Notes: generated by a model not told the origin, from the letters alone. A stretch of 32,000 bases of DNA from Bacilli bacterium (GCA_017484065.1 JAFUTX010000013.1:85137-117136); one strand, 5' to 3'; counted from the first letter of the stretch, positions 3,621 to 32,000 are shown. A program made the numbers and translations.

Positions 3621-3678
3621 AAAAAAACACTCAAGAATTCAATAATAATCTTGAGTGTTTTTACAATATTTTACTATT
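3621..3678. repeat. Direct repeat copy 2 (terminator hairpin plus flank), downstream of the small ORF and recD2
   Basis: Identical 49 nt to copy 1, with stem CACTCAAGA / TCTTGAGTG. The right end of the repeat overlaps the last codon and stop of the 3674..3838 ORF. Confidence 0.9.
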
Positions 3679-3838
3679 GCATATTATTTGATTTAAGCAT
3701 ATCATTAGCTTCATCAATCATAGTACCGATTAATTTATCAGCTTTTTTCTTAGTACTTTTATTAGTTAAGATATAAGTGGCCATACCAGTAGCTCCTGCT
3801 ACTAACATAGTAGCCATCATTTTTTTCATCATACTCAT
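3674..3838 (-). CDS. Small (54 aa) hypothetical membrane-associated protein
   Basis: Below the ORF-track size cutoff. My translation is MSMMKKMMATMLVAGATGMATYILTNKSTKKKADKLIGTMIDEANDMLKSNNMQ*, with an AAGGA RBS upstream. It has one hydrophobic segment followed by an amphipathic tail. Confidence 0.45.
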   Translation of the reverse strand: MSMMKKMMATMLVAGATGMATYILTNKSTKKKADKLIGTMIDEANDMLKSNNMQ

Positions 3839-3870: not shown

Positions 3871-6081
3871 TTATAAAGTATTATACAATAATTCCTTTAG
3901 AGAAGTTTTACGCATTTTACTATAATTATTATTAATTGCCATAACAAACGAGTTAATTTCTCCGATTAAAACTAAACTCTTTTTAGCACGACTTACACCT
4001 GTATATAGTAATTTATTATATAACATTTTAGAATAGTTCTTACTAATTGGCATTATTACATGAGCAAATTCACTACCTTGACTTTTATGAATAGTAATAG
4101 CATATGCATGTTTAATCATTGATAAATCTTCTTTATTATATTCAACATAATTACCTTCAAAATCAATAAGTACTTTATCTTTTTCTTTATTATTCTTTTT
4201 ATATATTATTTGTTTAATATAACCAATATCTCCATTAAAGACATTACAATCAGGATTATTAACAAGTTGTAATACTTTATCATTAATTCGATATGTAATA
4301 TCACCATATTTTATTTCTTTTGTATCTATACTAGGAGGATTAAAAATATTTTGCAATAAAACATTTAAACTATCTATACCATTTTCTCCTTTATACATTG
4401 GAGCAAGTATTTGTATTTCGTTATCTTTAATACCCTTTTCAATAGATCTTTCACAGATTTGTTTAATAAATTCTTTAATCGCTGAAGAACTAGTATTTAT
4501 AAAATTATAATCATCTTTCTTTTCTAAGAAATCATCTGATAAATCACATTCTTTAATTTCTTTGGCCAAATAAGGTATATAAGAATTATTACTTTGACGA
4601 TAAATACGATTTAAAGGTATATATTCAAACTTCTTTGATTCAATTAAATCATTTAATATAAGACCTGGTCCTACACTTGGTAGTTGGAAAGAATCTCCTA
4701 CTATTACTAATTGAACATCACTATATATTCCTTTAAGTAATGCATCAAATAAATTAATATCAATCATACTAAATTCATCAACAATAATTAACTTATGATG
4801 ATTTCTATTATATTCATTTACTCCAAAATCATCAGTATCTTTATTCCATTTTAAATAACGATGTAAAGTCATTGCCCCAAGTCCTGTAGACATTGATAAC
4901 TTCTTACTAGCACGACCAGTCGGAGCAAGTAAGGCTATTTTAGTATTAATATCATATAAAGATAATTTATTCATTTTAATATATAATTTAACAATAGCAT
5001 TAACTATAGTAGTTTTACCCGTACCAGGTCCTCCACTTATAATAGTAATACGATTTTCTAAAGCTTTTTTAATAGCATCTTTTTGTTCAGAGTTATATTC
5101 TACTTTAGCATTGTATTCTACTTCATCTATTAATGCTTCAAAGTTCTTTATTTCTTTCTTTGGATAATCATTAATTAAAGCTAAAGCCCCTACTATATCT
5201 TTCTCTTTCATATAGTATTCCGTTAAATAGATTTGATTATCTATCCTTACTACATGACCAAGACTCTCTAGTCTATTTAAAACTACTTCTAATTCTTCAC
5301 TAGCTAAATATATCCTAAACTCAGTTTGTAATGTAGAATTAATTTCTTCTAAATAATAATAAGTATCACCAAATTTATTACTTAGTCTTTTCATACTCTC
5401 TATAATACAAGCATTTAATCTAACAATTGAAGTAGCATCTAAATTATTCATTAAATATAAGTTATCTAACTTAGTAAAATCAATAACATCACTAAATACA
5501 TATAGATTTTCTTCTAAATACATCATCGTTTTATCTTTATATTTTTGATATATACTAGTACTCTCTTTTATTGAAAAGCCAAATTTTTTTAAAGCTATTA
5601 AAGTATCATCACTACTACTATTTTTTATTATTGATTCATATATTTTTTTAGCTTTACTCTCACTAATACCTGGTACCATAAGTAAGTTATTATAATTGTC
5701 TTTAATTAAATCAATAGCTTTTACTCCTAAAGTATCAACTATACTAATAGCAGTTTTTTCACCACACCCTTTGATTAATGAACTAGATAAAAATTCGATT
5801 ACAGCATCTTCGGTAGTTAATTCTTGTTTTTCATAATTATTTACTTTATATTGTTTACCATATCTTTCATGAACTACATAATCACCATATAAAAGATAAC
5901 TCTCCTCTGTATTATAATCAACAAAGTTACCTGTAATAGTTATAGATTTATTTACATGGTCTTTTAAGTTTTCATCATTTGTTTCTTTAATACGAAATAG
6001 CGCAACTAAATAACCATTATCACTATTGTAGTAAATTGTATCACCTATCTTACCTTTTATATAGTTCATAATAATCACCAA
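3871..6081 (-). CDS. recD2: RecD2-type (YrrC-like) SF1B ATP-dependent DNA helicase
   Basis: Walker A is ISGGPGTGKTT and Walker B-like is IIVDEFSM. The QLPSVGPG, RQ and TIHKSQGSE motifs, the size and the N-terminal OB/HhH region are typical of RecD2. The true start is probably the ATG at 6069 (MNYIKGK, GGTGA RBS), not the TTG at 6081. Confidence 0.85.
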   Translation of the reverse strand: MVIIMNYIKGKIGDTIYYNSDNGYLVALFRIKETNDENLKDHVNKSITITGNFVDYNTEESYLLYGDYVVHERYGKQYKVNNYEKQELTTEDAVIEFLSSSLIKGCGEKTAISIVDTLGVKAIDLIKDNYNNLLMVPGISESKAKKIYESIIKNSSSDDTLIALKKFGFSIKESTSIYQKYKDKTMMYLEENLYVFSDVIDFTKLDNLYLMNNLDATSIVRLNACIIESMKRLSNKFGDTYYYLEEINSTLQTEFRIYLASEELEVVLNRLESLGHVVRIDNQIYLTEYYMKEKDIVGALALINDYPKKEIKNFEALIDEVEYNAKVEYNSEQKDAIKKALENRITIISGGPGTGKTTIVNAIVKLYIKMNKLSLYDINTKIALLAPTGRASKKLSMSTGLGAMTLHRYLKWNKDTDDFGVNEYNRNHHKLIIVDEFSMIDINLFDALLKGIYSDVQLVIVGDSFQLPSVGPGLILNDLIESKKFEYIPLNRIYRQSNNSYIPYLAKEIKECDLSDDFLEKKDDYNFINTSSSAIKEFIKQICERSIEKGIKDNEIQILAPMYKGENGIDSLNVLLQNIFNPPSIDTKEIKYGDITYRINDKVLQLVNNPDCNVFNGDIGYIKQIIYKKNNKEKDKVLIDFEGNYVEYNKEDLSMIKHAYAITIHKSQGSEFAHVIMPISKNYSKMLYNKLLYTGVSRAKKSLVLIGEINSFVMAINNNYSKMRKTSLKELLYNTL

Positions 6082-6254: not shown

Positions 6255-7523
6255 GTGATTAGCGTGATAGATAGTTATTTAATAGAATATATTAATGAAT
6301 TAAAGAATAAAAAAGATGTAAATGATATTATCAAAACAATTGAAAAAATATTAGATAAAAAAAGTATAAATAATTTAGATAAGTATTCTAAAGAGGCCCT
6401 TTCACTATCTATGGAAAAGATGATAGTAACTTACATAGAAAAATCATGTATATTAGCTAATAGTTTATCTTATTGGGAAAGATTAAAAAATATTGCTCCA
6501 ATTATGGATAATAATCCTAATTTATTAAAAAGATATATTTATCCATTTTTACATAATCGTATAGAAGTAAGTAATTCAAAGAATATTGACGAAATAAATA
6601 ATTTTTATAATTCTAAAATAAATGATGTAATTCTAAAAGAAAAATTAAGCAAAGAAAAACTAGAAGAATTTAAGAATAAAATTAATGAATTAATACATAA
6701 ACAAATGAAAGTATTAAATAGTAAAACCGGTAAACAAATAGCAACAGCTAGTATAGCTGCTACTTTAGGTATCAGTGCCGTTTCAGCAATTGCTAAAGGA
6801 GATAATGGCTTAGATACTGAAGATATTATTATAGAAGAGACAATTGAACCGCAAGATGAAGTAATTACCGATTTTATAATAGAAGATACAACTGAGCCAG
6901 CAACAGTTGAAGAAACTACAACTGAATTAACAACTACTACAACTACCAAACAAATTACAGAAGCTAGTACAGAAGAAATAAAACAAAATATTAATGATAT
7001 TGATATAGGAGATCTCATTACCAATACTGGAAAACTAACTTATTATAATAGTGATAATAATATAATGGAAGGTGGTCCTAAGGATAGATACGAAAAGCTA
7101 CTTGAAGATGGCAAAGTTGCTATAAAACATCATCAAGTATTTGATGATGATGGTAATCTATTATATGAATATAGTTGGTTAAATGACCATAGTGTTATAT
7201 ATATTGATGCATATTATCTAGATAATAATGGTAATAAAATAAGAACAGATAATTATGGTAATAATAATTTCTTTTATGTTTGTGATAATGGTGGTGGCCT
7301 TGATGATTATCAAGTTGATATTTGGGTTGATGCCAGTGCAAATGAACTTAATTATGGTAAGTATGGTAGTTATGATATAGATACAGATAATCCTAAATCT
7401 ACTAAGGCATATGTAAATATTTATTTAGTTGCAGAAAATGTTTCTTGGGATGAATACGTTGCACATTTTAGAGACAAAACTAAAGAAGAAGTTTACAATT
7501 ATTTACAAGCAAAAACAAGATGA
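6255..7523 (+). CDS. Membrane-anchored protein with a Thr/Glu-rich linker and a possible C-terminal 3D (MltA/RlpA-like) domain
   Basis: The TM segment is IATASIAATLGISAVSAIA and the linker is TTELTTTTTTKQ. The C-terminal CDNGGGLDDYQVDIWVD resembles the Asp-rich 3D-domain motif. The start is GTG and uncertain. Confidence 0.45.
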   Translation: MISVIDSYLIEYINELKNKKDVNDIIKTIEKILDKKSINNLDKYSKEALSLSMEKMIVTYIEKSCILANSLSYWERLKNIAPIMDNNPNLLKRYIYPFLHNRIEVSNSKNIDEINNFYNSKINDVILKEKLSKEKLEEFKNKINELIHKQMKVLNSKTGKQIATASIAATLGISAVSAIAKGDNGLDTEDIIIEETIEPQDEVITDFIIEDTTEPATVEETTTELTTTTTTKQITEASTEEIKQNINDIDIGDLITNTGKLTYYNSDNNIMEGGPKDRYEKLLEDGKVAIKHHQVFDDDGNLLYEYSWLNDHSVIYIDAYYLDNNGNKIRTDNYGNNNFFYVCDNGGGLDDYQVDIWVDASANELNYGKYGSYDIDTDNPKSTKAYVNIYLVAENVSWDEYVAHFRDKTKEEVYNYLQAKTR

Positions 7524-7540: not shown

Positions 7541-8872
7541 TTATGCTCTTTCTAACTTGCAAGTATAACCTTTAGTAGTATAGTATGTTCTAATACTAGC
7601 TAATGATGTTGGAAATGTTGAACCGTATTCACTATCTAGCGTACTACTAGTTAAACTATTTTCATAAGTTAATTCATAATTACTATCATTAAATTTAGGA
7701 ATACCTTCATAATTATTATATTTATATGATTTATCATTTTCATAATTACTTTTAATTATTAAATAATTAGAATCTTTAACAAATTTAATACTTTTAACTC
7801 TTTTGGCCATTTTAGAATATGTATAATTAGCTTGTAAACCTATTTTATCAATATTACTTATTACATAATCACTATTAGATGTATCATCTTTACTACAAGT
7901 TAGATATGATACTGGAGCAGAACCACTAACTACTAATTTACCAGTTACATCAGTTTTATTTCCAGCCTCATCACTTACAGTTATGCTTATTTCGTAAGTA
8001 CCTTCAGCATTGGTATTATTTGTTACATCACTTTTAGTGTATTCAAAACTACATTCACTAGCATCATCACAACTATCAATGAAATCTTCAATTTTGTATG
8101 TTCCACCAATATAAGTAGTAACTTCTTTAGTTGTTACTTTAGGTGCAGTTGTATCTGCCACTTTAACACTACCAGTTTTACTTACTTCACCACATTTAAC
8201 TGTATATTCATATATACCTTCTTTTTTTATATCTACTTTTGATAAATCCACAGTACAACTACTAGCTGATATGTTAGAAACAGTAGCATATTTTTCAACA
8301 GTTGTATCAAGTGTACTACCAAGTTCTAAGTCTACAGTTTTAGCATCTATAGTTACTGGTGCAACTTTATTACCAGCTAATCTTAAATAGAAGAATAATC
8401 CTCCACCAATTATTAAACAAACTATTATCAAAATTATTACTAATGTACCAGTTTTTTTCTTCTTTTTTTGAGGAGGTTCTGGTGCAACAGTTGGTTGATT
8501 ATAATTATTAAAACCATTATTCGGATTTTGATTCATCCCATTATCCATATTATATCCATTACCATATGCATTGTTTGGATAATACATTTGTGAATTGTCC
8601 ATATTTTGCATATTATTATTATTTTGATCAAGATTTAGTTCTTGTTCAAAATTAGACAAATTTACTGTATTCATTGGATTTTGATTAGTATTTTGGACAA
8701 ATGGATTTAAATTAGATAAATCATTGTTATAATTCATACCATTATTCATGTTATTGGTCATATTATTATCTAAGCTATCAATACCATTTTGATTATTATT
8801 TAAATCATTATTCATATCATTACCCTCTTTATTATATAAATTAATTATATTAGTTTTTCTAATAAATTGCAA
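7541..8872 (-). CDS. Single-pass membrane protein with an Asn/Gln-rich cytoplasmic N-terminus and extracellular Ig-like repeats
   Basis: Low-complexity N/Q/M region, then KKKKK plus the TM helix LVIILIIVCLIIGGGLFFYL. Two segments follow with the D-T-x-P ... G-x-Y ... D-x-A-G-N pattern of bacterial Ig-like domains. The probable start is the ATG at 8815 (M20), preceded by GAGGG. Confidence 0.5.
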   Translation of the reverse strand: MQFIRKTNIINLYNKEGNDMNNDLNNNQNGIDSLDNNMTNNMNNGMNYNNDLSNLNPFVQNTNQNPMNTVNLSNFEQELNLDQNNNNMQNMDNSQMYYPNNAYGNGYNMDNGMNQNPNNGFNNYNQPTVAPEPPQKKKKKTGTLVIILIIVCLIIGGGLFFYLRLAGNKVAPVTIDAKTVDLELGSTLDTTVEKYATVSNISASSCTVDLSKVDIKKEGIYEYTVKCGEVSKTGSVKVADTTAPKVTTKEVTTYIGGTYKIEDFIDSCDDASECSFEYTKSDVTNNTNAEGTYEISITVSDEAGNKTDVTGKLVVSGSAPVSYLTCSKDDTSNSDYVISNIDKIGLQANYTYSKMAKRVKSIKFVKDSNYLIIKSNYENDKSYKYNNYEGIPKFNDSNYELTYENSLTSSTLDSEYGSTFPTSLASIRTYYTTKGYTCKLERA

Positions 8873-8890
8873 TATATAAAGAGAAAATAA

Positions 8891-10246
8891 TTACGTTCTT
8901 TTAGATAGCTCTACTACTTTACGCCAAAGCAACGGTCCTACTACACCATTAACGTCAAATCCATAATCTTGTTGAAGTTTAAATACTGACTTTTCAGTTA
9001 ATTCATCAAATGTTCCATTAACTCTTACTCCCGGAATAGATTTATCAAACTTACATATAGCTAATAAAAATTTTTGAAATCTTTTGATATCTGCTCCACT
9101 CATTCCTCTAACTAAAAAGTAATCTGGATATAACTCATTTACATAATCTTTATATTCACTTGGAAAAGACTTTAATATTTCATTATAAGCTTTTTTTAAT
9201 ATTTGCCAATCAACATAAGTAAATACTCCTGTTACAGGTAAACCATATTTTGATTGAAAAGCCTTAACCATAGTAATTGTATTATTATTATAAATAGAGT
9301 TTGTTTGAAGTCTGGGAATATCTGGGTCTAAAAATGATATAGCATCTAAATAATAATGAACGTATTGTACTTCAATACCAGTATCACCATAATCTAATCT
9401 ATCAGTATAAAGAAAAGTTACTTCATCTTCGTTTAGGCCTTCGCTATATAAATCACCTAGTTTTTTGACACTATTATATACATATTTAATCTTATACCAA
9501 GTACCTTTATCAACAGTACCAGTTATAGGTAAACTAAATATTTCTTGAAACTTTTTAACAGCATTAACAGTTTCTTCATCATAGATACCTAAAGTAGTTT
9601 TAATATCAGGTATAGCTGGATAATTTTTTCTAATTCTTTTTAAATCTCTTTGAATAGCAAGTACAGGATTACCAGCTGAACCTAACCCAACTGGAGAACC
9701 AGGATAACCTTCTGTAGTATCTCCTACTGGGGCATCATATTTTATAGATATATCTTTACCATAGTAGTTTTGCAATATTTGAAGTGGTGTTTTGCCTTGA
9801 TTAGCAAGTGTTACACACCCCCATTGACTTAGACCAGCACAAGTAGTAACTCGACCATCACAATAAGTTGTAAAATATGGTTGAACTTGATTACCTTTAA
9901 CAACATAATTATCAAAAATATCATCAACTATAACTGAAATATTTTCGTAAACAGATCGATTTTCAACATATTTTTGATCATAAGCAGGCGACGATGTTAT
10001 GTCAAAGTTATAGCCTTTAGAACGATACCATTCATTATAGATTCTATTCATAGCAAAAGAAATTATTGCATAAATATTTGCTATTAAAGCATTTTTAGGC
10101 CATGTCGGATAAAGTTCATTAGAAGCTACATTAGCTATATAATCAGTAAATGGAACTGTAATATTTCTCGCAGCTTCATCAGGTTTACCTAAGTGAACAG
10201 TAATATTATTTGGAACTATTGGATACCTAACGGCCATTAAAACCAC
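8891..10246 (-). CDS. SleC-like spore cortex-lytic enzyme body (catalytic region plus several PG_binding_1 repeats), lacking the N-terminal prodomain
   Basis: ITVHLGKPDEAARNITVPFTDYIANVASNELYPTWPKNALIANIYAIISFAMNRIYNEWYRSKGYNFDITSSPAYDQ matches my recollection of the conserved core of clostridial SleC. Peptidoglycan-binding repeats follow (e.g. GDTGIEVQYVHYYL, GMSGADIKRFQKFL). The probable start is the ATG at 10237, preceded by AGGTGG. Confidence 0.6.
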   Translation of the reverse strand: MVLMAVRYPIVPNNITVHLGKPDEAARNITVPFTDYIANVASNELYPTWPKNALIANIYAIISFAMNRIYNEWYRSKGYNFDITSSPAYDQKYVENRSVYENISVIVDDIFDNYVVKGNQVQPYFTTYCDGRVTTCAGLSQWGCVTLANQGKTPLQILQNYYGKDISIKYDAPVGDTTEGYPGSPVGLGSAGNPVLAIQRDLKRIRKNYPAIPDIKTTLGIYDEETVNAVKKFQEIFSLPITGTVDKGTWYKIKYVYNSVKKLGDLYSEGLNEDEVTFLYTDRLDYGDTGIEVQYVHYYLDAISFLDPDIPRLQTNSIYNNNTITMVKAFQSKYGLPVTGVFTYVDWQILKKAYNEILKSFPSEYKDYVNELYPDYFLVRGMSGADIKRFQKFLLAICKFDKSIPGVRVNGTFDELTEKSVFKLQQDYGFDVNGVVGPLLWRKVVELSKRT

Positions 10247-10660: not shown

Positions 10661-11566
10661 TTAAATTTTTAATACTTGCCCTATACTTAGATTATTGCTA
10701 GTTAAGTTATTCTTTCTTTTAATATTATCCACAGTAGTATTATACTTTTTAGCTATTAAGTATAAAGAATCACCTTTTTTTACCGTATAAGTTATAGTTG
10801 TACTACTATTATTACTTGGTATTTTTAACTCTTGACCGATACTTAAAATATTACTCTTTAAATTATTAGTATTAATAATATCATTAACACTTACATTATA
10901 TTTTTGACTTATACTATATAAGCTATCTCCTCTTTTTACTACATAAGTTACAGTATTAGTTGGACTAGATATATCAGGAATATAATCTTCACCAAAACAT
11001 TCTTCTACTTCCATAGTTACTCCACTTGGAATACGAATCTTTAGCTGTTGACCTATATTTAAAATATTACTAGTTAAAGAATTATCTTGAATTAATGTAT
11101 CAACACTTATATTGTTATTCTTAGCTATTGAGTACAGTGAATCTCCTTTTTTTACTGTATAATTAGAATACTGTGGTAATACTATTTCTTCTTCTGGTGT
11201 ATACATCTCTGGTATTCTTAATACTTGTCCTATGCTTAAATTAGTACTTTTTAAATAATTTAAATCAATTATTTTTTGTACTGTTGTACCATACTTGCTT
11301 GCTATCTTATATAGACTATCACCACTTTTTACTGTATACATAAACATTGTATCTGGATTAGTAGCAGATTTAGTGGGTATAGTAAGTACTCTTCCTACTT
11401 GTAAATTACTACCATAAATATTATTAAGTTCAGCAAGTTCTGTAACTGATACACCAAACTGATTACTTATCCCATATAAAGTATCGCCACTTTTTACAGT
11501 ATATGTTTGATTTATTTTTATCACCTCTCTATCAAACAATATGCAAAAAAGATAAGATATAACCAA
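10661..11566 (-). CDS. Protein with five LysM peptidoglycan-binding repeats
   Basis: Five copies of Y-[TV]-V-K-x-G-D-[ST]-L-Y-x-I-[AS]...L-x-[IV]-G-Q-x-L-[KRT]-I-P. The start codon is uncertain; the first ~15 aa of the track ORF look non-native. Confidence 0.8.
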   Translation of the reverse strand: MVISYLFCILFDREVIKINQTYTVKSGDTLYGISNQFGVSVTELAELNNIYGSNLQVGRVLTIPTKSATNPDTMFMYTVKSGDSLYKIASKYGTTVQKIIDLNYLKSTNLSIGQVLRIPEMYTPEEEIVLPQYSNYTVKKGDSLYSIAKNNNISVDTLIQDNSLTSNILNIGQQLKIRIPSGVTMEVEECFGEDYIPDISSPTNTVTYVVKRGDSLYSISQKYNVSVNDIINTNNLKSNILSIGQELKIPSNNSSTTITYTVKKGDSLYLIAKKYNTTVDNIKRKNNLTSNNLSIGQVLKI

Positions 11567-17160: not shown

Positions 17161-17901
17161 ATGAATATTTTTACTAACAGAACTGATCTTTATTTTGAAA
17201 AGAAAAATTTAAAGTATCTACATGATAATATTAGTTTACATAAAGAAATAGAAAATAATTATTTATACCATACTATTTACTTTCCTAATAGTTTCAACAG
17301 CAAAAACCTAATAAATATATTAAAAAATGAATTAATCTTTTTTATCAATAATTGTGATATACATAATTTTAGTCATATACTAGTAGTTGGGTTAGGTAAC
17401 AAATTGCACACCGCTGATAGTGTTGGTCCAGAAGTATTAAAATATTTAAATATAACTAGTCATTTAAATCTTTTTAATATAGATAACAAAATAAAAATAT
17501 CTGCTATTGAACCAGGTGTATTATCTACTACTGGAATACCTACTGATAAAATAGTAAAGAGCATAGCGGATAAAATAAAGCCAGATTTACTAATATTAAT
17601 AGATGCCTATGTAACTAATAACATTGACAATTTAAACCATACCATTGAAATTACTAATGAAGGAATTATACCTGGAAGTGGTATTAAAGGAATAAATAAT
17701 GCCATTAATAAAGAAATACTAAATATACCTACTATATCTATAGGTGTACCTACTGCAATTGAAATTAAGCTTAATTCCAAGAAAAAAGATAATGAATTTA
17801 CTTATTTATTATCAACTAATAGTATTGATTCTTATATATCTAACATAAGTAGAATAATAGCTTATAGTTTAAATGAAACATTTAATAATTTTAATGCATG
17901 A
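17161..17901 (+). CDS. gpr: GPR endopeptidase (spore germination protease), compact form
   Basis: RTDL near the N-terminus, then VVGLGNKLHTADSVGPEV, ISAIEPGVLSTTGIPT, IKPDLLILIDA, ITNEGIIPGSGI and ISIGVPTAIE. All are in the order of the A25 peptidase family. Confidence 0.75.
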   Translation: MNIFTNRTDLYFEKKNLKYLHDNISLHKEIENNYLYHTIYFPNSFNSKNLINILKNELIFFINNCDIHNFSHILVVGLGNKLHTADSVGPEVLKYLNITSHLNLFNIDNKIKISAIEPGVLSTTGIPTDKIVKSIADKIKPDLLILIDAYVTNNIDNLNHTIEITNEGIIPGSGIKGINNAINKEILNIPTISIGVPTAIEIKLNSKKKDNEFTYLLSTNSIDSYISNISRIIAYSLNETFNNFNA

Positions 17902-18817
17902 TAATTTTATCGACATCGTTTAATATTGATGCCTTTACTGATTTATCTTTTAATAAGTTTAACGATGACTTTCTATAGCCTATGTGATTAACACTATTAC
18001 CAGAGTGATATATTTTATTTCTATCAAGAATAAAATATCTATCATTAAATGTATCATCATAATATATAGTTAAGTTATTATAATCTTTATTATATTTATC
18101 TATATCTAATTTAGTTAGTTTAGTATTCTGACCTGTAATTAGTTTAACATCACATTTTAAGTTTTTTATCATATCTAAAATAGTTTTATCAGTATATCTA
18201 TCTATTATTATCAACTCATTTTTAGTCATACTAAAAATATCTATGATTAAGGAATGAGCATCATATATCTTACCATCAAAATATATTTCATTTATTTCTT
18301 TATTTTCTTCTAGCTTCTTTAATGATTTTTCTAACAAATTTATTCTAATAGTATTCTTTCTAATGTTATTATGGTCTTCTAGTATTAAGTTAGTAATATT
18401 TTGATGTTCTAGCAAGTTATTTGAAATATAATGTCTCATTGCTACAAATGCATCCATTATCTTGATACTAACTTCTTCTGCAACTTCAGTATTTAATATA
18501 GTAGCAAGCATAGCAACACCTTGTTCAGTAAAGGCATATGGTAAATATTTAATATGTTGTCCCCTTTTATTTCCATTAATGTTTAAGGTTTCAAATTGAA
18601 ACCTTAAACATTCTTTACATTCTTCTTCTGTTAATTGAAACATAAATCTTTCTGGAAATCTTTTAATATGTCTTTTAACTGCGAGATTTATAGATTTTGT
18701 TCCGTTCTTACATTTATAAAGATAGGCTAAGTCACTATCTAACATAACTTGTTTGCCTCTTATTTCATAAATCATATCTTCAATCTTTAATTCTTCATTT
18801 AATGCTAATTCATTCAT
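17891..18817 (-). CDS. ORF6N (KilA-N-related) domain protein with a conserved C-terminal domain
   Basis: IYEIRGKQVMLDSDLAYLYKCKNGTKSINLAVKRHIKRFPERFMFQLTEEE...LPYAFTEQGVAMLATIL is a typical ORF6N domain. The C-terminal ...NDRYFILDRNKIYHSGNSVNHIG is typical of full-length members. Confidence 0.75.
   Translation of the reverse strand: MNELALNEELKIEDMIYEIRGKQVMLDSDLAYLYKCKNGTKSINLAVKRHIKRFPERFMFQLTEEECKECLRFQFETLNINGNKRGQHIKYLPYAFTEQGVAMLATILNTEVAEEVSIKIMDAFVAMRHYISNNLLEHQNITNLILEDHNNIRKNTIRINLLEKSLKKLEENKEINEIYFDGKIYDAHSLIIDIFSMTKNELIIIDRYTDKTILDMIKNLKCDVKLITGQNTKLTKLDIDKYNKDYNNLTIYYDDTFNDRYFILDRNKIYHSGNSVNHIGYRKSSLNLLKDKSVKASILNDVDKIIMH
18580..18610. repeat. 31-nt perfect palindrome inside the ORF6N coding sequence
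   Basis: TGTTTAAGGTTTCAA-A-TTGAAACCTTAAACA. The arms were verified as exact reverse complements. It encodes CLRFQFETLNI. Confidence 0.9.
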
Positions 18818-18835
18818 ACCAAAACCTCCGAATAA

Positions 18836-19396
18836 TTATTTATTATTATCATGATTTAATACCATGTTATTTATATTTTTTTGCTCTATTAAATTATTAC
18901 TTATATAATGCCTCATTGCTACAAATGCATCCATTATTTTGATACTAATTTGAGTAGCAACACTAGTTTTGAGAATTGTTGCAAGCATGGCAACTCATTG
19001 CTCAGTAAATACTCTTGGATTATTATATTTACCACCTATTCTATCTATTTCTCTTTTTTGGTCAAAAATTTTGACCAAAAGACTTTTGGATTCATTATCA
19101 GTTAATTTCCAAGAAAATTGTTCAGTAAATACTCTTGGATTACTCCTTGACATATTACTATAATTTGTGGTCAATTTTTTTGACCGCAAATCGTTTAGTT
19201 CATTATCAGTTAATCTCCAAGAAAATCTTTCTGGAAATTTATCTGAATTGTTTTTTACTGCTTGATTAATAACTTTCGTTCCATTCTTACATTTATAAAG
19301 GAAAGCTAAGTCACTATCTAACATAACTTGTTTACCTCTTATTTCGAAAATCATATCTTCAATCTTTAATTCTTCATTTAATGCTAATTCATTAAT
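18836..19396 (-). pseudogene. Decayed partial tandem copy of the ORF6N gene (N-terminal two thirds only)
   Basis: About 65 nt spanning the RBS and first codons are near-identical to the intact gene, but ATG has become ATT at 19394-19396. There is an in-frame TGA at 18995-18997 where the intact copy has Gly (TEQ*VAMLATIL versus TEQGVAMLATIL). The FSW[RK]LTDNE...NPRVFTEQ unit is duplicated internally. The C-terminal domain is missing. Confidence 0.75.
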
Positions 19397-19464
19397 ACCA
19401 AAACCTCCGATTACTCTAAGTAATAATAATATATCATATCGAACATGTGTACGTCAATAATAAT

Positions 19465-24388: not shown

Positions 24389-26350
24389 CTATTTATTATT
24401 AATGTAATTAATAAGTACATCTACTACTTTTTCTACTCCTATACTGTCCACATTAAGAGATATATCATAATTACTTCCCCAATCTATTCCTGTATAGTTT
24501 TCATAGTATTTTTTTCTTTCTTTATTAGTCTTATTAATAACTCTTTTAGCTTTATCTTTATCTAAATGGTAATATTTAATACCTCTATTAATCTTATCTT
24601 CTAAATTAGAATATAAAAATACTTTAATTACATTTTTGTTATCTTTTAAAATATAATCACTACATCTACCTACTATTACACAAGGTTGTTTAGCTAAATT
24701 TTCTATTACCTTAGTGTTAGCTTCAAATAATAAGTTATCATTTTGATAAAAGTTTTTCTTTTCTTCAATTTCTTTGACATATTCAGGAGCAAAACCACTC
24801 TTTTTAGCATCTAACATTATTATTTCTTTATCATATATTGGAATATTTAATTTACTAGCTAATAACTTACCAACATATCTGCCACCAGAGCCGTATTCAC
24901 GAGCAATAGTGATAACGTAATTAGTTAGAGGTTGACCACTTACTTCTTTTGAATTTAATTCTATCTTTTCTTCTTTTACATTTAATTTCTTATATTCTGA
25001 TGAAAAAATAAAACATACTACTATAAAACATATAGTATCTGCAGCTATACCTGCATATAAAGCTCCATATAAACCATAAATATGACATAATACTATTGAT
25101 AATGGAATAAATAAAATTATTTGCCTAGTAAATGATACTAAAGTTGATTTAACAACATTACCTAGTGATTGAATTACGATTGAGCATGTCATTTCAAATG
25201 CATTCAAGAAACAAACTCCTAAGAATATTCTAGAACAGGCAATTCCAAATTTTAAAAATAAATCATAATTAACATCACTTTTACTAATAAATAGATTAAT
25301 TAGTACTTGTGGACATATTTGTAATATTAAATTAAAGATTATTCCAATAGTAAAATTAATTATTAATACTAGTTTTAATGTTTCCTTAACTCTTTTTAAA
25401 TTCCTAGCTCCATAATTATATCCAATAATAGGTTGAGCTCCTATAGATATACCTAATACAGCAGATACATAAAAACTATTTAATTTACTTATAACACCAT
25501 AAACTGATAATGGAATATCACTACCATAAATACTACTAGCACCATATTTAGTCATTAAATTATTCATAACAATAAATAAAGCCATTACTGTCATTTGAGT
25601 AATAAAACTTGATAAACCTAAACCTACTGATTTTAATACTTCTTTAGTTAATTTATAATCACTTTTATTTATTTTAACAGATTTAAATTTTCTTAAATAT
25701 AGTATAGCTATAATAAATGATATTATTTGACCAATAATAGTAGCATATGCTCCACCCGCTACACCCCAATTAAATTTAAAAATAAATATAGGGTCTAGTA
25801 CTAAATTAATTACTGCTCCTATACATAGGAAAAACATCGCATATCTAGGTGAACCATCACTACGAATAATACTAGATAAACCAGTATAAACAATCATAAA
25901 TGGGGCACCAAGTAGAATAATTCTTCCATAAGTAATAGCACTATCATAAACATTTGGGGTAGAACCAAATAGTTTTATTAATGCAGGTAATAACAACTCA
26001 CCTATAATGGCAACAACTATAGCACTAATAAATAATAAAGTGATTGATGAAGCTACACTCTTACTAGCCTCTTCTTTTTTCCCTTCACCAAGTCTTAAAC
26101 TTAAATTAGCTGCTGAACCATTGCCAATTAAACCTGCTACTGCATTACAAATAATTACAATCGGAAATATAACATTAGTAGCAGCATTACCAATAGTTCC
26201 TACTCCTTTACCAATAAAAATTTGATCTACTATATTATATACTGAATTAATTAACATACTTATTATACAAGGAATAGAAAATGCTAATAATAATTTACTT
26301 ATTTTTTCTTTTCCTAAATCTAACTTTTTCAAAAACATCACTCCTAACAA
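24389..26350 (-). CDS. MATE-family efflux transporter fused to a C-terminal cytidylate-kinase-like (Cytidylate_kin2-type) domain
   Basis: The first ~450 aa are polytopic and MATE-like (SIPCIISMLINSVYNIVDQIFIG...). The last ~190 aa start ITIAREYGSGGRYVGKLLASKLNIPIYDKEII and end ...RKKYYENYTGIDWG, the signature of the stand-alone cytidylate-kinase-like family. The start codon is ambiguous (26350, 26338 or 26332). Confidence 0.65.
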   Translation of the reverse strand: MLGVMFLKKLDLGKEKISKLLLAFSIPCIISMLINSVYNIVDQIFIGKGVGTIGNAATNVIFPIVIICNAVAGLIGNGSAANLSLRLGEGKKEEASKSVASSITLLFISAIVVAIIGELLLPALIKLFGSTPNVYDSAITYGRIILLGAPFMIVYTGLSSIIRSDGSPRYAMFFLCIGAVINLVLDPIFIFKFNWGVAGGAYATIIGQIISFIIAILYLRKFKSVKINKSDYKLTKEVLKSVGLGLSSFITQMTVMALFIVMNNLMTKYGASSIYGSDIPLSVYGVISKLNSFYVSAVLGISIGAQPIIGYNYGARNLKRVKETLKLVLIINFTIGIIFNLILQICPQVLINLFISKSDVNYDLFLKFGIACSRIFLGVCFLNAFEMTCSIVIQSLGNVVKSTLVSFTRQIILFIPLSIVLCHIYGLYGALYAGIAADTICFIVVCFIFSSEYKKLNVKEEKIELNSKEVSGQPLTNYVITIAREYGSGGRYVGKLLASKLNIPIYDKEIIMLDAKKSGFAPEYVKEIEEKKNFYQNDNLLFEANTKVIENLAKQPCVIVGRCSDYILKDNKNVIKVFLYSNLEDKINRGIKYYHLDKDKAKRVINKTNKERKKYYENYTGIDWGSNYDISLNVDSIGVEKVVDVLINYINNK

Positions 26351-28031: not shown

Positions 28032-28340
28032 CTATTTAATAGTTTTTTTTATAACTGCACTTAATAACACTTCATTAATCAAAATTTTTTTCTTATATAA
28101 TAAGTAATTATTATTTTGATAATTATTACTTTCTATGATTTCTAAGCCATCTAATAACAGATAAGAGATATTTTTTTCTTTAATTCTACTTATATCATTG
28201 CTTAAATATAAAAAAATCTTTTTATCTAGATAACATGATACTACCTTTTTATCATAATATATTAAAATTAGCTTACTAGGATACATTTTTTTTAAAAATT
28301 TATATCTATTTTCTAAACTCATCAAACCACTTATTTTCAA
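28032..28340 (-). CDS. Small ORF with weak MutS-domain-I-like N-terminus, downstream of the DGR RT
   Basis: LENRYKFLKKMYPSKLILIYYDKKVVSCYLDKKIFLYL parallels the MutS N-terminus (Y..lK..yPd.lLlfr.GdFYE.f..DA). It is also similar to the 31629..32000 ORF (IKEKNISYLLLDGLEII versus LEEKKIHYQIILNDEEI). It overlaps the RT stop by 35 nt. Confidence 0.4.
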   Translation of the reverse strand: MKISGLMSLENRYKFLKKMYPSKLILIYYDKKVVSCYLDKKIFLYLSNDISRIKEKNISYLLLDGLEIIESNNYQNNNYLLYKKKILINEVLLSAVIKKTIK

Positions 28341-28682
28341 CTAATCTTTTAATATAAGTACTATTACCATATCTATAATTATTAATGTAAGACGCCATAC
28401 TACAAAAAGCTTGTTCAAAACTTATATAGTGATGTTTATATAACCAAGCGTTTTCTTTAATTTTCTTTTTTATATTTTTTTTATTCTTTTGACAAATATT
28501 TATAATAGTCTTTTTATTTATAACTCTAAATCTATATCCTAAAAATACAAATCCTTCTTTATTAGTTACTATCATAGTTTTTTTAGGATTTAATACTAAC
28601 ATATACTTTGTTTCTAATTCATATTTAATGTAATTATAGGCATCAATTAATTTTTGCTTATCAGGGTGAATTAAAATAAAGT
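28306..28682 (-). CDS. DGR reverse transcriptase, exon 2 (second and third bases of the split Asp codon through the stop)
   Basis: After removing the intron, G (30597) plus AC (28682-28681) gives GAC (Asp). The protein then reads YIRYMDD-FILIHPDKQKLIDAYNYIKYELETKYMLVLNPKKTMIV..GFVFLGYRF, i.e. RT motifs 5-7. The first 8 codons of the track ORF (28683-28707, GTG start) lie in intron domain VI and are not coding. Confidence 0.8.
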
Positions 28683-28685
28683 ATC

Positions 28686-28754
28686 GAGTAGAAATATGTG
28701 TTACCACATATAACCCTCACAGATCCGTACGTGCAGCTTTCCCGCATACGGCTC
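28686..28754 (-). ncRNA. Group II intron catalytic domains V and VI
   Basis: Domain V matches the near-universal GAGCCGUAU...ACGUACGG consensus. In domain VI, AUAUGUG-GUAA-CACAUAU forms the upper stem and GAGGG/CU(A)CUC the lower stem, with the branch A bulged. Confidence 0.85.
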
Positions 28755-28786
28755 TTCATAACATAGTATTTATTCTTCAAATTGCT

Positions 28787-30082
28787 TTATATTGAATATA
28801 TTTTAATTTTAATATGTGGCTTTGGAATATTATAGTATTTTGTCATTTGTAAAAATTCTTCCCAATTATAACTCTTTCTTTGACTTCTTCTATTTATCCA
28901 TTTAAATAGTATATGTAAACTTTCGTAATAGAATTTTCTAATCATATGATAATTGTCGCTGATACCATAATAGTTATAGTAACCAATTAGTTTCTTTCTA
29001 TATGTAATCATTATCGTTTCTAATGTTTCATTTCTATTCTCTTTACACCAATCGTTAAATTCTGTTAGTTTCTTTCTAAATTTCTTACTTGACGTTTTAC
29101 GCTTTACACGAAACTTTCCATTTTTACTTTTACTACAATAATGAGTAAATCCCAAGAATTCAAATGTATCTGGTTTATTACTTTTACAATTCTGTATTGC
29201 AAATCTTCCAAAGCTTAACAATCTAGTTTTATCTTCTGCCAGCTCTAAATCCGCCTGTTTTAATCTATTTGGTAAAAGTTTTTCATAAAATATCTTTGCC
29301 ACACTTTCATATTGGAAGCAACAAATAAAGTCATCTGCATAATTTATTATACTCATGAAACCTCCATATTTAACTTTAACAAAATCTTCGAACCACTTTA
29401 TTAAAGTATAATACATATAAATATTTGCTAGTACTGGACTTAATATAGAACCTTGTGGTGTTCCATATTCTCCAATATAAAATTTATTATTTTCTAATAT
29501 ACCTGCCCTTAAGAATTTTCTTACAAGTTTTAATATATTTTTATCATTAATATGTAGTTCTAAACATTTTATTAGTTTGTCATGATTGATATTATCAAAG
29601 AACCCTTTTATATCTGCTTCGACTACAAAATTTGTAAAGTGTCCTTCAATATCAATTACTATTTGCTTTAATGCTTGATGACAATTTTTATTAGGTCTAA
29701 AACCAAACATATTGTCTGGAAATTTAGGTTCATATATTGCTTCAATTAGTTTCTTTAGTGCTAATTGAACTATTTTGTCTTCAAAATTCGCAATAGCTAA
29801 ACCTCTAACTTTTCCATTAGATTTTGGTATATCAACTTTTCGTGCCGGGCTTGGTTTGTAGCTTTTATTCTTTAGTTTTGTAACTAAAATATTGATATTC
29901 TCCTCAAGATTTAAACTATATTCTTCTTTTGTAATACTATCTATTCCAACTGCTTTATTACCATCTAATTCTTTAAAACATTCATTTAATAGTTCTTTAT
30001 TAATTAAGTGGTATATCGAGCTAAATATTTCTTTTGGTCTTTCTTTTGCAATTTGGTTTATTCTTGCTATTTTACTTGTCAT
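28787..30082 (-). CDS. Group II intron-encoded protein (reverse transcriptase plus maturase/X domain, no obvious endonuclease domain)
   Basis: It has ...GNKAVGIDSITKEEY..., PKSNGKVRGLAI, ADIKGFFDNINHDKL, TPQGSILSPVLANIYM, NYADDFICCF and FLGFTHY, plus a C-terminal maturase-like region (YYNYYGISDNY). These are typical IEP motifs. Confidence 0.9.
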   Translation of the reverse strand: MTSKIARINQIAKERPKEIFSSIYHLINKELLNECFKELDGNKAVGIDSITKEEYSLNLEENINILVTKLKNKSYKPSPARKVDIPKSNGKVRGLAIANFEDKIVQLALKKLIEAIYEPKFPDNMFGFRPNKNCHQALKQIVIDIEGHFTNFVVEADIKGFFDNINHDKLIKCLELHINDKNILKLVRKFLRAGILENNKFYIGEYGTPQGSILSPVLANIYMYYTLIKWFEDFVKVKYGGFMSIINYADDFICCFQYESVAKIFYEKLLPNRLKQADLELAEDKTRLLSFGRFAIQNCKSNKPDTFEFLGFTHYCSKSKNGKFRVKRKTSSKKFRKKLTEFNDWCKENRNETLETIMITYRKKLIGYYNYYGISDNYHMIRKFYYESLHILFKWINRRSQRKSYNWEEFLQMTKYYNIPKPHIKIKIYSI

Positions 30083-30596
30083 TATTTCTTCACTCCTTGT
30101 ATAGTGATAATGTTTGCAATAACTAAGAGCTATGTTATGTGAACCCCTTCCCTACATTGCATTTATTGATGCAATATCAAAGGTACTATGAGTTCATCTG
30201 ACTACCTATATTTCATTTGATATATTTATTTATTATTTTATCATACTCTGTACCAATTGGCTCACTGCCCACTTTTGGAATAAGAGAAAATATAGGTTCT
30301 CACTGTTCATCGAATAAACATTGTATATCATGATTAGGTCTTTCAGACTCCGCAAGAGTTTAATAATACTACCCATATTGTATTATTAAATGTAGTATTC
30401 CACTTGGATGACAGCATCTACACTCTTGAAATATAACGATACATTTCGAAGCTCAATACTAACCCTAATACCTAACTGTCTACGCTTAATTATAAATGTT
30501 ACCATTTATAACCCAAGACTCGCTACTAGATGTGGCGGGTACCACTTTCTAGGTAGGATTTCCACCTACTAATTTATTCGACCTACACAGTCGCAC

Positions 30597-31305
30597 CATC
30601 CATATATCTAATATAATATGGAATGTTAAGCTTATGAACAATATCATAATCTAGTTTATATAAATAAAAAATAGCTAAAAATTGGCTTGTCATATTACCT
30701 ATGGGTAAGCCTTTGCCTTTTTCATATAAAGGTAATTCTACATTATAGTTTTTCATTATTCTTTTAATATTATTATTGATATACTCTTGATTAGTAGTAT
30801 CAATTATTGTATTTAAAACGTGGGCTTCTTCAGTTTTTAATTTTTCACTTAACAACGATTTTAATACTTTGTGATCAATTGAATAAAAATACTTAGATAT
30901 ATCTAATTTTAAAATATAGAATTTATCAAATTTTTTGCACTTTTCTAAATATTTTTTTATTTTCAATCTTCCATAATCAGTCCCCATATTCTTCCTGGTA
31001 GCTATATTTCTATCTATTAAATATTTTTCTAACTTTTCTATTAGAATCTTATTAGCTATATAATGATTAATAATTTTATCTTTGATATTTAAAGACATTA
31101 TTACCCGACATTTTGGTTCAAATACAATAAATATATTATATAAACAACGATAACTTGAATTAAAATTTTTTAAAGCATTGCAAACATCAATTAAATTTTG
31201 CATATGATATTTTTCAAATTGATATAATTTACGTTTATTTTTAGTGTTTGGCATTATAGCATTTTCATAAATTCTTATAACATCACTAAGTAACACATTA
31301 TTCAT
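30597..31305 (-). CDS. DGR reverse transcriptase, exon 1 (Met1 through the first Asp of YMDD plus the first base of the second Asp codon)
   Basis: VFEPKCRVIMSLNIKDKIINHYI, NIATRKNMGTDYG, YILKLDISKYFYSIDHKVL and GLPIGNMTSQFLAIFYL (the [LIV]GxxxSQ signature that distinguishes DGR RTs), then YIRYMD. The track ORF continues ...GATV* only because it reads into the intron. Confidence 0.8.
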
Positions 31306-31651
31306 TATTTTTTATCCATTTATATATCATTTTTTTTATTTCTAACAAATAATTACATTTGTTTTCACATTGCTTGTTAGATATATATTTTTTATTATGT
31401 AAATATTCTAAATAAAAATCTAACATAGATACTTGAGTTAAAACTATCTTTTGGTAAGTTTCCATCTCCTTACCCTTATACATATTAGCTAAATATAAAA
31501 ATTCTAATAATTCATTTGATCTTTCAAATAATTGTTCTTTTATATGTCTTTCTTTATTAGGTATATTAACAACTAGTTCATCTAAAGAAAAAATAAATTT
31601 TTTTACAGATACTGCAATATAAAACTCTTTATTCATTAGCAACAACCTCAA
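31298..31651 (-). CDS. avd: Avd-like four-helix-bundle protein (DGR accessory variability determinant / 23S-IVS protein family)
   Basis: It is 117 aa and predicted all-helical. The pattern ...NIPNKERHIKEQLFERSNELLEFLYLAN...VSMLDFYLEYLHNKKYISNKQ...LLEIKKMIYKWIKN matches the family pattern (P-K-x-E-[RK] ... [AI]N ... K-x-[IL]-S-x-K-Q ... W-x-K). An 8-nt overlap with the RT start is the usual avd-RT coupling. Confidence 0.7.
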   Translation of the reverse strand: MRLLLMNKEFYIAVSVKKFIFSLDELVVNIPNKERHIKEQLFERSNELLEFLYLANMYKGKEMETYQKIVLTQVSMLDFYLEYLHNKKYISNKQCENKCNYLLEIKKMIYKWIKNNE

Positions 31652-32000
31652 TGTAATTAACTATTTTATCAATTTTTTCTTCATTTAAGTTTTCAATTTT
31701 CTTTATTAATATATCTATGTTTCTATTTTTGTCTCTTGCAATTAAAGCATCATTTAATGTGTTATTATAGTGATTAATTCCCTTTTTAAAATTAATTTCT
31801 TCATCATTAAGAATAATTTGATAATGTATCTTCTTTTCTTCTAAAATAGTTAAAACTTTATTTTGTGCTGATATTGGAAATCCAACCCTACGATTTATTA
31901 TTCTATAACCAAATAAATACCATAAAATAACAGCATCATCATCAAATACTTGATAGAATTTACCAACTTTTCTAATGACTAAAATATTTGCTTTTTTCAT
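31629..32000 (-). CDS. Stand-alone MutS mismatch-binding-domain-I-like protein (DGR accessory, MSL-type)
   Basis: NILVIRKVGKFYQVFDDDAVILWYLFGYRI...VGFPISAQNKVLTILEEKKIHYQII parallels MutS domain I (lLffrmGDFYElFfeDA...l.itLT....pmaGvP.ha...yl.kLv..G.kvaIceQ). The ATG occupies the last three bases of the window, so an upstream extension cannot be excluded. It overlaps avd by 23 nt. Confidence 0.6.
   Translation of the reverse strand: MKKANILVIRKVGKFYQVFDDDAVILWYLFGYRIINRRVGFPISAQNKVLTILEEKKIHYQIILNDEEINFKKGINHYNNTLNDALIARDKNRNIDILIKKIENLNEEKIDKIVNYIEVVANE

Follow-up and report, generated by a model that had tools for sequence, protein, structure and literature searches.

Diversity-generating retroelements (DGRs) are usually detected and experimentally studied as single loci, with the template repeat (TR) next to the reverse transcriptase (RT) gene. 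In the DGR of Bordetella phage BPP-1, the order avd-TR-Sp-brt (Sp, spacer) is found within one locus that contains neither a MutS-like gene nor an intron, and the mismatches between the TR and the variable repeat (VR) are adenine-specific. A second arrangement, 'Architecture D', is defined by a published accessory gene, 'MutS-like' (MSL), a MutS-domain-I-like gene that stands with avd and the DGR RT gene in elements that are chromosomal and not phage-borne (Wu et al. 2018, NAR, PMC5758913). Dispersed DGR parts have been described in Thiohalocapsa PB-PSB1 (Dore et al. 2024, PNAS, PMC10907252) and as the remote targets of a Treponema DGR (PMC5758913); in these cases, complete DGRs are also present in the genome and transposons explain the disruption. 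In this report, we describe a DGR core in a stretch of 32,000 nt (JAFUTX010000013.1, 85137-117136, of GCA_017484065.1; hereafter the window), from an uncultured gut bacterium of the Bacilli with a low GC content, whose metagenome-assembled genome (MAG) stems from a ruminant gut and bears locus tags IJ574_. The minus strand of positions 28032-32000 carries an enzyme cassette without an adjacent TR, and we consider it probable, at about 0.6, that this cassette belongs to a split, trans-capable DGR whose TR and spacer lie at the gene IJ574_04515 on another contig.

The element is a chromosomal DGR of the known MSL architecture and not a new kind of system. As in Architecture D, a MutS-domain-I-like gene accompanies avd and the RT gene, and the relatives of the locus are ordered target with VR, TR, MSL, avd and RT; as in BPP-1, the RT, whose best solved match is the Bordetella enzyme, has an Avd partner, TR/VR mismatches are adenine-specific, and the TR is followed directly by a structured RNA, where Bordetella has its Sp. 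It departs from the described cases in an RT gene interrupted by an intron, in the separation of its enzyme and RNA modules, and in a second, smaller MSL-like open reading frame (ORF) after the RT gene; the pI of MSL is 9.0, compared with the 7.2 +/- 1.7 reported for this protein (PMC5758913). In contrast to the Bordetella order, the TR and a spacer of family-specific fold precede MSL in the relatives, and here they are found on another contig. Unlike in Thiohalocapsa and Treponema, the only RT cassette seen here is without a TR, and the only TR seen is without an RT.

The enzyme cassette and its interrupted RT gene

Four overlapping genes form one cassette up to a terminator. MSL (IJ574_02410, 123 aa, 31629-32000), recognized as an ORF with a Pfam MutS_I match, is followed by avd (31298-31636; 112 aa from its ATG, 117 aa from an upstream TTG), by the DGR RT gene and by a small MSL-like ORF (28032-28322; 96 aa from its ATG, 102 aa from a TTG at 28340), with overlaps of 8 nt (MSL/avd), 8 nt (avd/RT) and 17 nt (RT/small ORF). 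An intrinsic-terminator-like hairpin, with a 10-bp stem followed by T8 (28010-27988), ends the cassette. An earlier inspection of the window, referred to below as the sequence-only reading, had described the MSL-like and Avd-like ORFs and the RT motifs FEPKCR, IGNMTSQ and YMDD just as we find them, all on the minus strand and with YMDD split by an intron, and had placed a terminator at the end of the operon, where the T8 hairpin stands. Its core of MSL, avd and RT holds as well, and has to be supplemented by the conserved fourth ORF (28032-28322, or to 28340), which it did not list.

Unspliced, the RT ORF starts at 31305, runs into intron sequence and closes as ...RYMDGATV*, and the 133-aa ORF downstream begins within RT-like sequence; the RT frame is readable only with a group II intron of 1914 nt (28683-30596, GTGCGAC...CTCGAT) removed from it. 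Exon 1 (30597-31305) encodes residues 1-236 and the first base of D237, ending ...RYMD, and contains FEPKCR, LDISKYFYSIDH, IGNMTSQ and YMD; exon 2 (28306-28682) opens with D-FILIH, completing D237 and continuing as FILIHPDK... to the stop. Joining 30597 to 28682, at a predicted junction of ...ATATGGATG with ACTTTATTT... (GGATG/ACTTT), gives an RT of 361 aa that reads ...IRYMD/DFILIHPDK.... The junction falls on the family consensus RYMDDFILIH, and when the RT is aligned with 18 homologues, it keeps every one of the 69 invariant columns. More than 3000 homologues were found for the spliced protein, and the best 120 of them are uninterrupted, 352-380 aa long and 47-61% identical at 94-100% query coverage. 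The best match in the PDB is Bordetella bRT (8ub7, E 5e-22), followed by a group II maturase (4e-8) and Cas6-RT-Cas1 (4e-6); the protein aligns colinearly with homologues from TR/VR-bearing loci, and its motif 4, [LIV]GxxxSQ, reads IGNMTSQ. The predicted spliced protein is thus a DGR reverse transcriptase, and the claim of the sequence-only reading that the window holds a DGR core is borne out by this motif, by 8ub7 as the best structural match and by the TR/VR-bearing homologues: the DGR core, of the MSL-containing architecture, is genuine, while its current activity is unproven.

The insertion site of the intron lies within YMDD, between the first and second bases of the codon for the second Asp. 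Its ends (GTGCG...GAT) match the group II consensus (5' GUGYG, 3' AY); domains D1-D4 are recognized by Rfam RF02005 at 30338-30562 (139.9 bits, E 4e-40, model positions 1-225 of 225) and D5-D6 by RF00029 at 28683-28756 (53.3 bits, model positions 1-77 of 77). At intron position 187, the exon-binding sequence EBS1 (CATCCA) pairs with the intron-binding sequence IBS1, the 6 nt TGGATG at the end of exon 1. An intron-encoded RT/maturase of 431 aa (28787-30082) matches TIGR04416 (E 2.9e-98, 329 bits, cut-off 300), RVT_1 (E 2e-34) and GIIM (E 7e-4). Judged by these features, this is a complete group II intron, D1-D6, with its own maturase and a cognate IBS1/EBS1 site, and because the ribozyme domains are complete, the maturase is intact and EBS1 is paired with IBS1, it should be able to splice. 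In its 5' GUGCG and 3' AU ends, its domains, the position of its encoded protein in domain IV and its EBS1-IBS1 pairing, it resembles other bacterial group II introns (RF02005, RF00029, TIGR04416); it differs from them in its home, the catalytic-motif codons of the RT of another retroelement. The identical maturase occurs on 8 contigs, in this context only, and no copy of the protein turned up in any other context.

For comparison, we collected 80 related loci by an RT-alignment scan of species-representative genomes. The empty insertion site, TTAGATATATGGATG followed by A(T/C)TTT, is identical in 21 of 57 RT sites from these loci; since uninterrupted relatives carry the same sequence, the recognition sequence of the intron is the conserved R-Y-M-D-D coding stretch. 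No second intron-split RT was seen among the 80 loci, a weak negative given that the set was selected for contiguous matches, and the literature searched contained no published group II intron inside a DGR RT.

The accessory proteins are recognized at the level of families. The top family matches of Avd are the two Avd models, both below curated cut-offs (Pfam bAvd, E 5.2e-6, 27.3 bits, cut-off 40; NCBIfam DivGenRetAVD, E 2.4e-8, 34.2 bits, cut-off 80); its position and size are conserved in the relatives, the orthologue in the closest relative with genomic context (L092) carries a precomputed PF22296 (bAvd) match, and its pI is 8.7. The earlier call of an Avd-like ORF, for which an HMM search had been proposed as a check, is probably right, if weak by score. 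MSL itself scores slightly under the Pfam MutS_I cut-off (E 0.0017, 19.0 bits, cut-off 20.6), and 17 of 21 of its orthologues match the model (best E 4.4e-6), so that its assignment to MutS domain I is correct at the family level; a profile of the family aligns with domain I of MSH6 over GKFY..DA...GFPE at E 0.19. MSL is kept at the same position in 72 relatives. A protein search with MSL as the query returned only MSL itself, and its single-sequence AlphaFold model (pLDDT 40) is unusable. The small ORF after the RT gene has a homologue in most of 51 candidate downstream ORFs of the relatives, a few of which are spurious TR read-throughs. It matched no Pfam family, and its profile found no match in the PDB; aligned with the MSL family by hhalign it gives a probability of 92% (E 7e-7), which suggests that it is distantly MSL-like.

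Search for a TR in the window and upstream of MSL

A diagonal scan that rewarded matches and tolerated mismatches only at the adenines of one copy (direct pairs, mutable base on either strand) found no A-biased repeat pair in the window and the adjoining 258 nt described below, and neither did a BLAST-based test of the same sequence that also covered inverted pairs. When the window was searched with a profile of 38 TRs from relatives, one weak match resulted, to minus-strand positions 828-863 (E 0.015). A candidate TR/VR pair at 18.3-19.4 kb, formed by direct repeats (83% over 215 nt), was rejected: the repeats are the 5' parts of duplicated ORF6N-type genes, one of which is fragmented, and their mismatches are not adenine-specific.

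Public assemblies extend the sequence beyond position 32000, upstream of the MSL start, by 95 nt (a Logan contig), 207 nt (ENA contig k141_429574, which differs from the window by 1 mismatch in 10.7 kb) and 258 nt (another scaffold, L004 1-258); all 10 public contigs with the MSL protein stop within this distance, at these differing points, and a scan of JGI metagenomes with a 24-mer from this stretch gave no match. The 258 nt contain neither a TR nor the post-TR spacer RNA described below. The spacer profile meets them from the ribosome-binding site of MSL onward only, not over the conserved RNA, and BLAST of the stretch against the window and all loci returned low-complexity matches only. 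The stretch is AT-rich and contains three terminator-like hairpins.

The statement of the sequence-only reading that the window shows no TR or VR is correct for the TR and for A-biased pairs, also with the 258 nt added, and missed a VR-like target gene at 758-2314, since only 27.8-32.0 kb had been searched for repeats. Its expectation that the TR and target most likely lie just upstream of position 32000 is not supported: there is no TR or spacer in the 258 nt, and a TR/VR pair was found on another contig. Its other suggestion, a TR-less remnant, may still hold, but the four ORFs and the intron are all intact. Extension of the contig past 32000, which it had recommended, yielded those 258 nt without a TR, and a TR farther away may exist; the genome-wide search for an A-biased pair, also recommended, did yield one, with 20 adenine-to-N changes, assigned to this genome by binning.

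Target-family genes and a TR/VR pair on another contig

The weak profile match lies in a gene of the DGR-target family, IJ574_02240 (758-2314, minus strand, 518 aa), on the same strand as the RT gene and 29 kb from it. The protein carries a membrane anchor at its N-terminus and contains a DUF6273 domain (Pfam, E 2e-6). Its C-terminus (...WFLSPYSETVNNAASLRDYGEVEYGYNTVDQTNAVRPALYLKS...GGAGTSSNPYTLSV) has the same architecture as the verified targets of relatives and shares the family signature W.LSP...AVRPALYLKS..GG.GTSSNPY.L; because of this architecture, we regard it as a target-type gene with a VR-like segment (828-937, minus strand). The 3' end of the segment, ACAAATGCGGTTCGCCCAGCC, closely resembles the TR ends of relatives, and no cognate TR was found for it by the searches above. 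Whole-chain Foldseek of the AlphaFold model (pLDDT 76.9) gave no C-type-lectin match (top match 9qa6, E 2e-4), and Pfam gives DUF6273 only. In this small low-GC genome, at least nine paralogues bear the same MAG prefix (P0121, P0124, P0126, P0130, P0139, P0144, P0150, P0152 and P0226). In this family of anchor, DUF6273 and VR-like C-terminus, one member carries a dockerin domain, and a TR is known for a single one. A relative of the window gene on short contigs (P0123, 86%) was considered as an adjacent target and rejected, as it comes from other samples, has SpoIIIAH downstream and has no TR.

The member with a TR is IJ574_04515, the closest paralogue of the window gene (68% identity), found on contig k141_201666 (ENA sample ERZ27256836), on a scaffold from a second sample (L091, SAMN15829962) and on further contigs; six contigs were read, the longest in the 0.2-1 Mb class. 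In the locus as we read it (L090), the VR occupies 6371-6485 at the 3' end of the gene, covering residues ~23-60 from the C-terminus, and the TR lies ~100 nt past the stop codon, at 6657-6770 (64.6 bits and E 9e-20 with the TR profile). The VR has another base at 20 of the 40 TR adenines (T at 9, G at 8 and C at 3), and the two repeats otherwise differ by one G>T, one C>T and one indel. The VR-like segment in the window differs from the same TR by a 9-nt deletion, a 6-nt insertion and non-adenine mismatches. Directly after the TR follows the spacer RNA (E 2.6e-20) with all helices present, and then a hairpin and genes for glycosyltransferases. This TR, which by coordinates lies at least 17 kb from either contig end, is flanked on each side by 5 kb in which no RT gene is called.

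Both loci cease to be homologous to the ancestral layout at one and the same point, between the spacer RNA and the ribosome-binding site of MSL, and no insertion sequence element is visible at the junction of either the enzyme or the TR locus. Both contigs come from sample ERZ27256836, carry the same NCBI MAG prefix and have similar GC contents (25.0% and 25.8%). P0001, the closest RT (61% identity), was considered as a second RT of the same genome and rejected, as it is from another sample.

Two observations concern the ends of the target genes. In this genome of 25% GC, the stop codon of the verified target is followed, at a distance of 10 nt, by a GC-rich 12-bp hairpin (L090 6562-6592), and the target in locus L030 has a comparable one after it; IJ574_02240 has only an AT-rich terminator after its stop codon.

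Layout of the related loci and the post-TR spacer RNA

The 80 related loci are all from uncultured gut MAGs of the 'Bacilli', 'Tenericutes' and 'Mycoplasma sp. CAG:611' type, and 41 of them contain clean TR/VR pairs, in which the two repeats differ at 9-25 adenines and at few other positions. Their usual order is target with VR, TR, spacer, MSL, avd, RT and small ORF; this canonical layout is also that of L092, whose RT is 58% identical to the one described here. Among the 79 loci examined for layout, the TR ends 137-535 nt (median 191) upstream of the MSL start in 59, follows the RT gene by 18-199 nt in 10, and is farther away, inverted or not visible in 7. In L009, the TR and spacer are on the opposite strand (4676-4929); L021 has two spacer copies on opposite strands (3965-4132 and 7691-7845); L006 and L012 have the TR and spacer kilobases from the RT gene; L028 shows only a weak TR/VR-like match (8847-8915) and no spacer; and the intact RT cassette of L049 is without a TR or spacer over ~9 kb of upstream and 3 kb of downstream sequence. 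In the relatives, therefore, the TR and spacer behave as a separable module. Separately, L016 (2253-3983) and L018 (11111-13045) contain eight tandem TR-like units directly after the RT gene, which could be template arrays or a repeated lectin-like coding region.

Of the 80 loci, 77 were scanned with the spacer profile, and in 59 of these the TR is immediately followed by a spacer RNA of ~130 nt. Alignment of 48 related loci with L090 6760-6909 shows a fold in which three helical regions surround an unvarying single-stranded stretch, ATAAAGGACAAAGATTATCC, and a TACG loop; the core ACA...TC...TACG is invariant. Of the 25 predicted pairs, 23 show compensatory changes, and 94.9% of cells are paired, compared with 70.7% in column shuffles (none of 500 reached the observed value) and 39-46% when the partners were slid. 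No Rfam family matches it. It is thus a real conserved structured RNA, a feature of the family that appears to have remained undescribed so far. Handa et al. reportedly found that the Bordetella Sp binds bRT-Avd; the post-TR RNA is probably the binding and priming element for RT and Avd in this family.

Other features of the window

Several further repeats and one fused gene were observed in the window. An ORF6N/KilA-N-like gene (17891-18817) has a fragmented paralogue upstream (ORFs 18836-18988 and 18995-19354), and the two form direct repeats of 75-83% identity (18366-19413). Four tandem copies of ~134 nt (10665-11347; 66-70% identical, spacing 156-216 nt) lie inside the ORF 10661-11566 and probably encode a repeated protein domain. 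A hairpin-containing sequence of 66 nt, ACTCAAGA...TCTTGAGT, is repeated with 94% identity at 2475-2540 and 3622-3687, one copy after a Fic-family gene and the other after a RecD2-like helicase gene. A single ORF of 653 aa (24389-26350) joins a MATE efflux domain to a cytidylate-kinase-like domain (precomputed Pfam MatE and Cytidylate_kin2).

Discussion

We propose that the window holds the enzyme part of a split DGR. In this model, the cassette would be transcribed, the intron would be removed from the mRNA with the help of its maturase and the RT would be made; RT and Avd, probably with the two MSL-like proteins, would then assemble in trans on the TR-spacer RNA from the other locus, and adenine-mutagenized cDNA would be synthesized and would replace the VR of IJ574_04515. 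The paralogue in the window would be a former or an independent target and not a current target of the TR at IJ574_04515. Trans action is plausible because avd-TR-brt is active from a plasmid in Bordetella (PMC5758913), because incomplete DGR loci have been proposed to be served in trans in Thiohalocapsa (PMC10907252) and because relatives of the present locus have displaced TR-spacer modules. A stronger form of this model, which we hold only tentatively, is a naturally bipartite DGR whose modules act in trans and whose RT production depends on intron splicing, with one retroelement gating another.

Several points weigh against a split DGR that works in trans. The assignment of both contigs to one genome rests on binning and a shared sample, not on physical linkage, and the TR and spacer at IJ574_04515 are not specifically closest to those of the nearest relative of the RT, many loci being ~70% identical to them. 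For each of the two targets, the 5-6 contigs with the gene, from few samples, all encode one and the same protein sequence. A 12-bp stem with a T-run, terminator-like, ends 34 nt before the MSL ATG and no sigma-70-like promoter was found in the 258 nt upstream, so that expression of the cassette is uncertain. Splicing, cDNA synthesis and ongoing VR variation are steps that we only infer. Finally, a second TR may lie just past the contig break, because all contigs end within 258 nt of MSL and the TR is more than 258 nt from MSL in 18 of the 59 relatives that have it upstream.

This last point leads to an alternative that we consider unlikely but the best of those below, namely, as the sequence-only reading proposed, a conventional DGR with its own TR, spacer and target just past the contig end, more than 258 nt upstream, to which the TR at IJ574_04515 would be additional. 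Not only the 18 relatives, with distances of up to 535 nt, are in keeping with such an arrangement: many contigs of relatives likewise break at or near the TR (those of L023 and L055, for example, begin inside it), and the VR-like gene in the window is without a known TR. In the other 41 of the 59 relatives, however, 258 nt upstream of MSL would already include some of the TR, which makes the canonical arrangement unlikely here, and the visible 258 nt have no homology to the family spacer and are occupied by AT-rich sequence with hairpins instead. A near-identical second TR-spacer should, moreover, break the contigs of IJ574_04515 too, and six of these read through; the varying break points upstream of MSL fit poor coverage of an AT- and hairpin-rich stretch as well as they fit a repeat.

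Somewhat less probable is a decaying or silenced remnant, in which a rearrangement has split the enzyme genes from the TR and spacer, the intron and a terminator stop RT production, and the adenine-to-N changes record past activity. The terminator-like hairpin directly before MSL, the missing promoter-like site and an RT frame that is closed unless the intron is spliced could all be read in this way, as could the uniform VRs among the available assemblies and the diverged, TR-less VR of the window paralogue. On the other hand, the four cassette ORFs are intact and overlap, with lengths typical of the family, and the spliced RT keeps every invariant column; the intron has complete domains, an intact maturase and paired EBS1/IBS1; the TR keeps its 40 adenines, and the spacer keeps all conserved helices. 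Intact RT cassettes are also kept by other relatives, in which the TR-spacer is distant, inverted or missing.

That the TR/VR contig derives from a different, related organism in the same sample is very improbable: MAG bin and shared sample are the only link, and in a family so common in gut Bacilli MAGs related strains could co-occur, but the contigs co-occur in the ERZ27256836 assembly and in one NCBI MAG at nearly equal GC content, with L091 as a second sample, the target paralogues are 68% identical with C-terminal ends in common, and each half lacks exactly what the other has, both being broken at the same ancestral point between spacer and MSL.

A split, trans-capable DGR thus remains our preferred reading, and if it is true, systems such as this one, a cassette with its TR-spacer elsewhere, would be missed by locus-based surveys. 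RT and Avd would then have to find their RNA in trans via the conserved spacer structure. The intron in the YMDD codons is a case in which one mobile retroelement has homed into the most conserved stretch of the RT of another, and it could couple hypermutation to intron splicing. Beyond this genome, the spacer provides a concrete candidate for the RT-binding or priming element in a very abundant family of gut-Bacilli DGRs.

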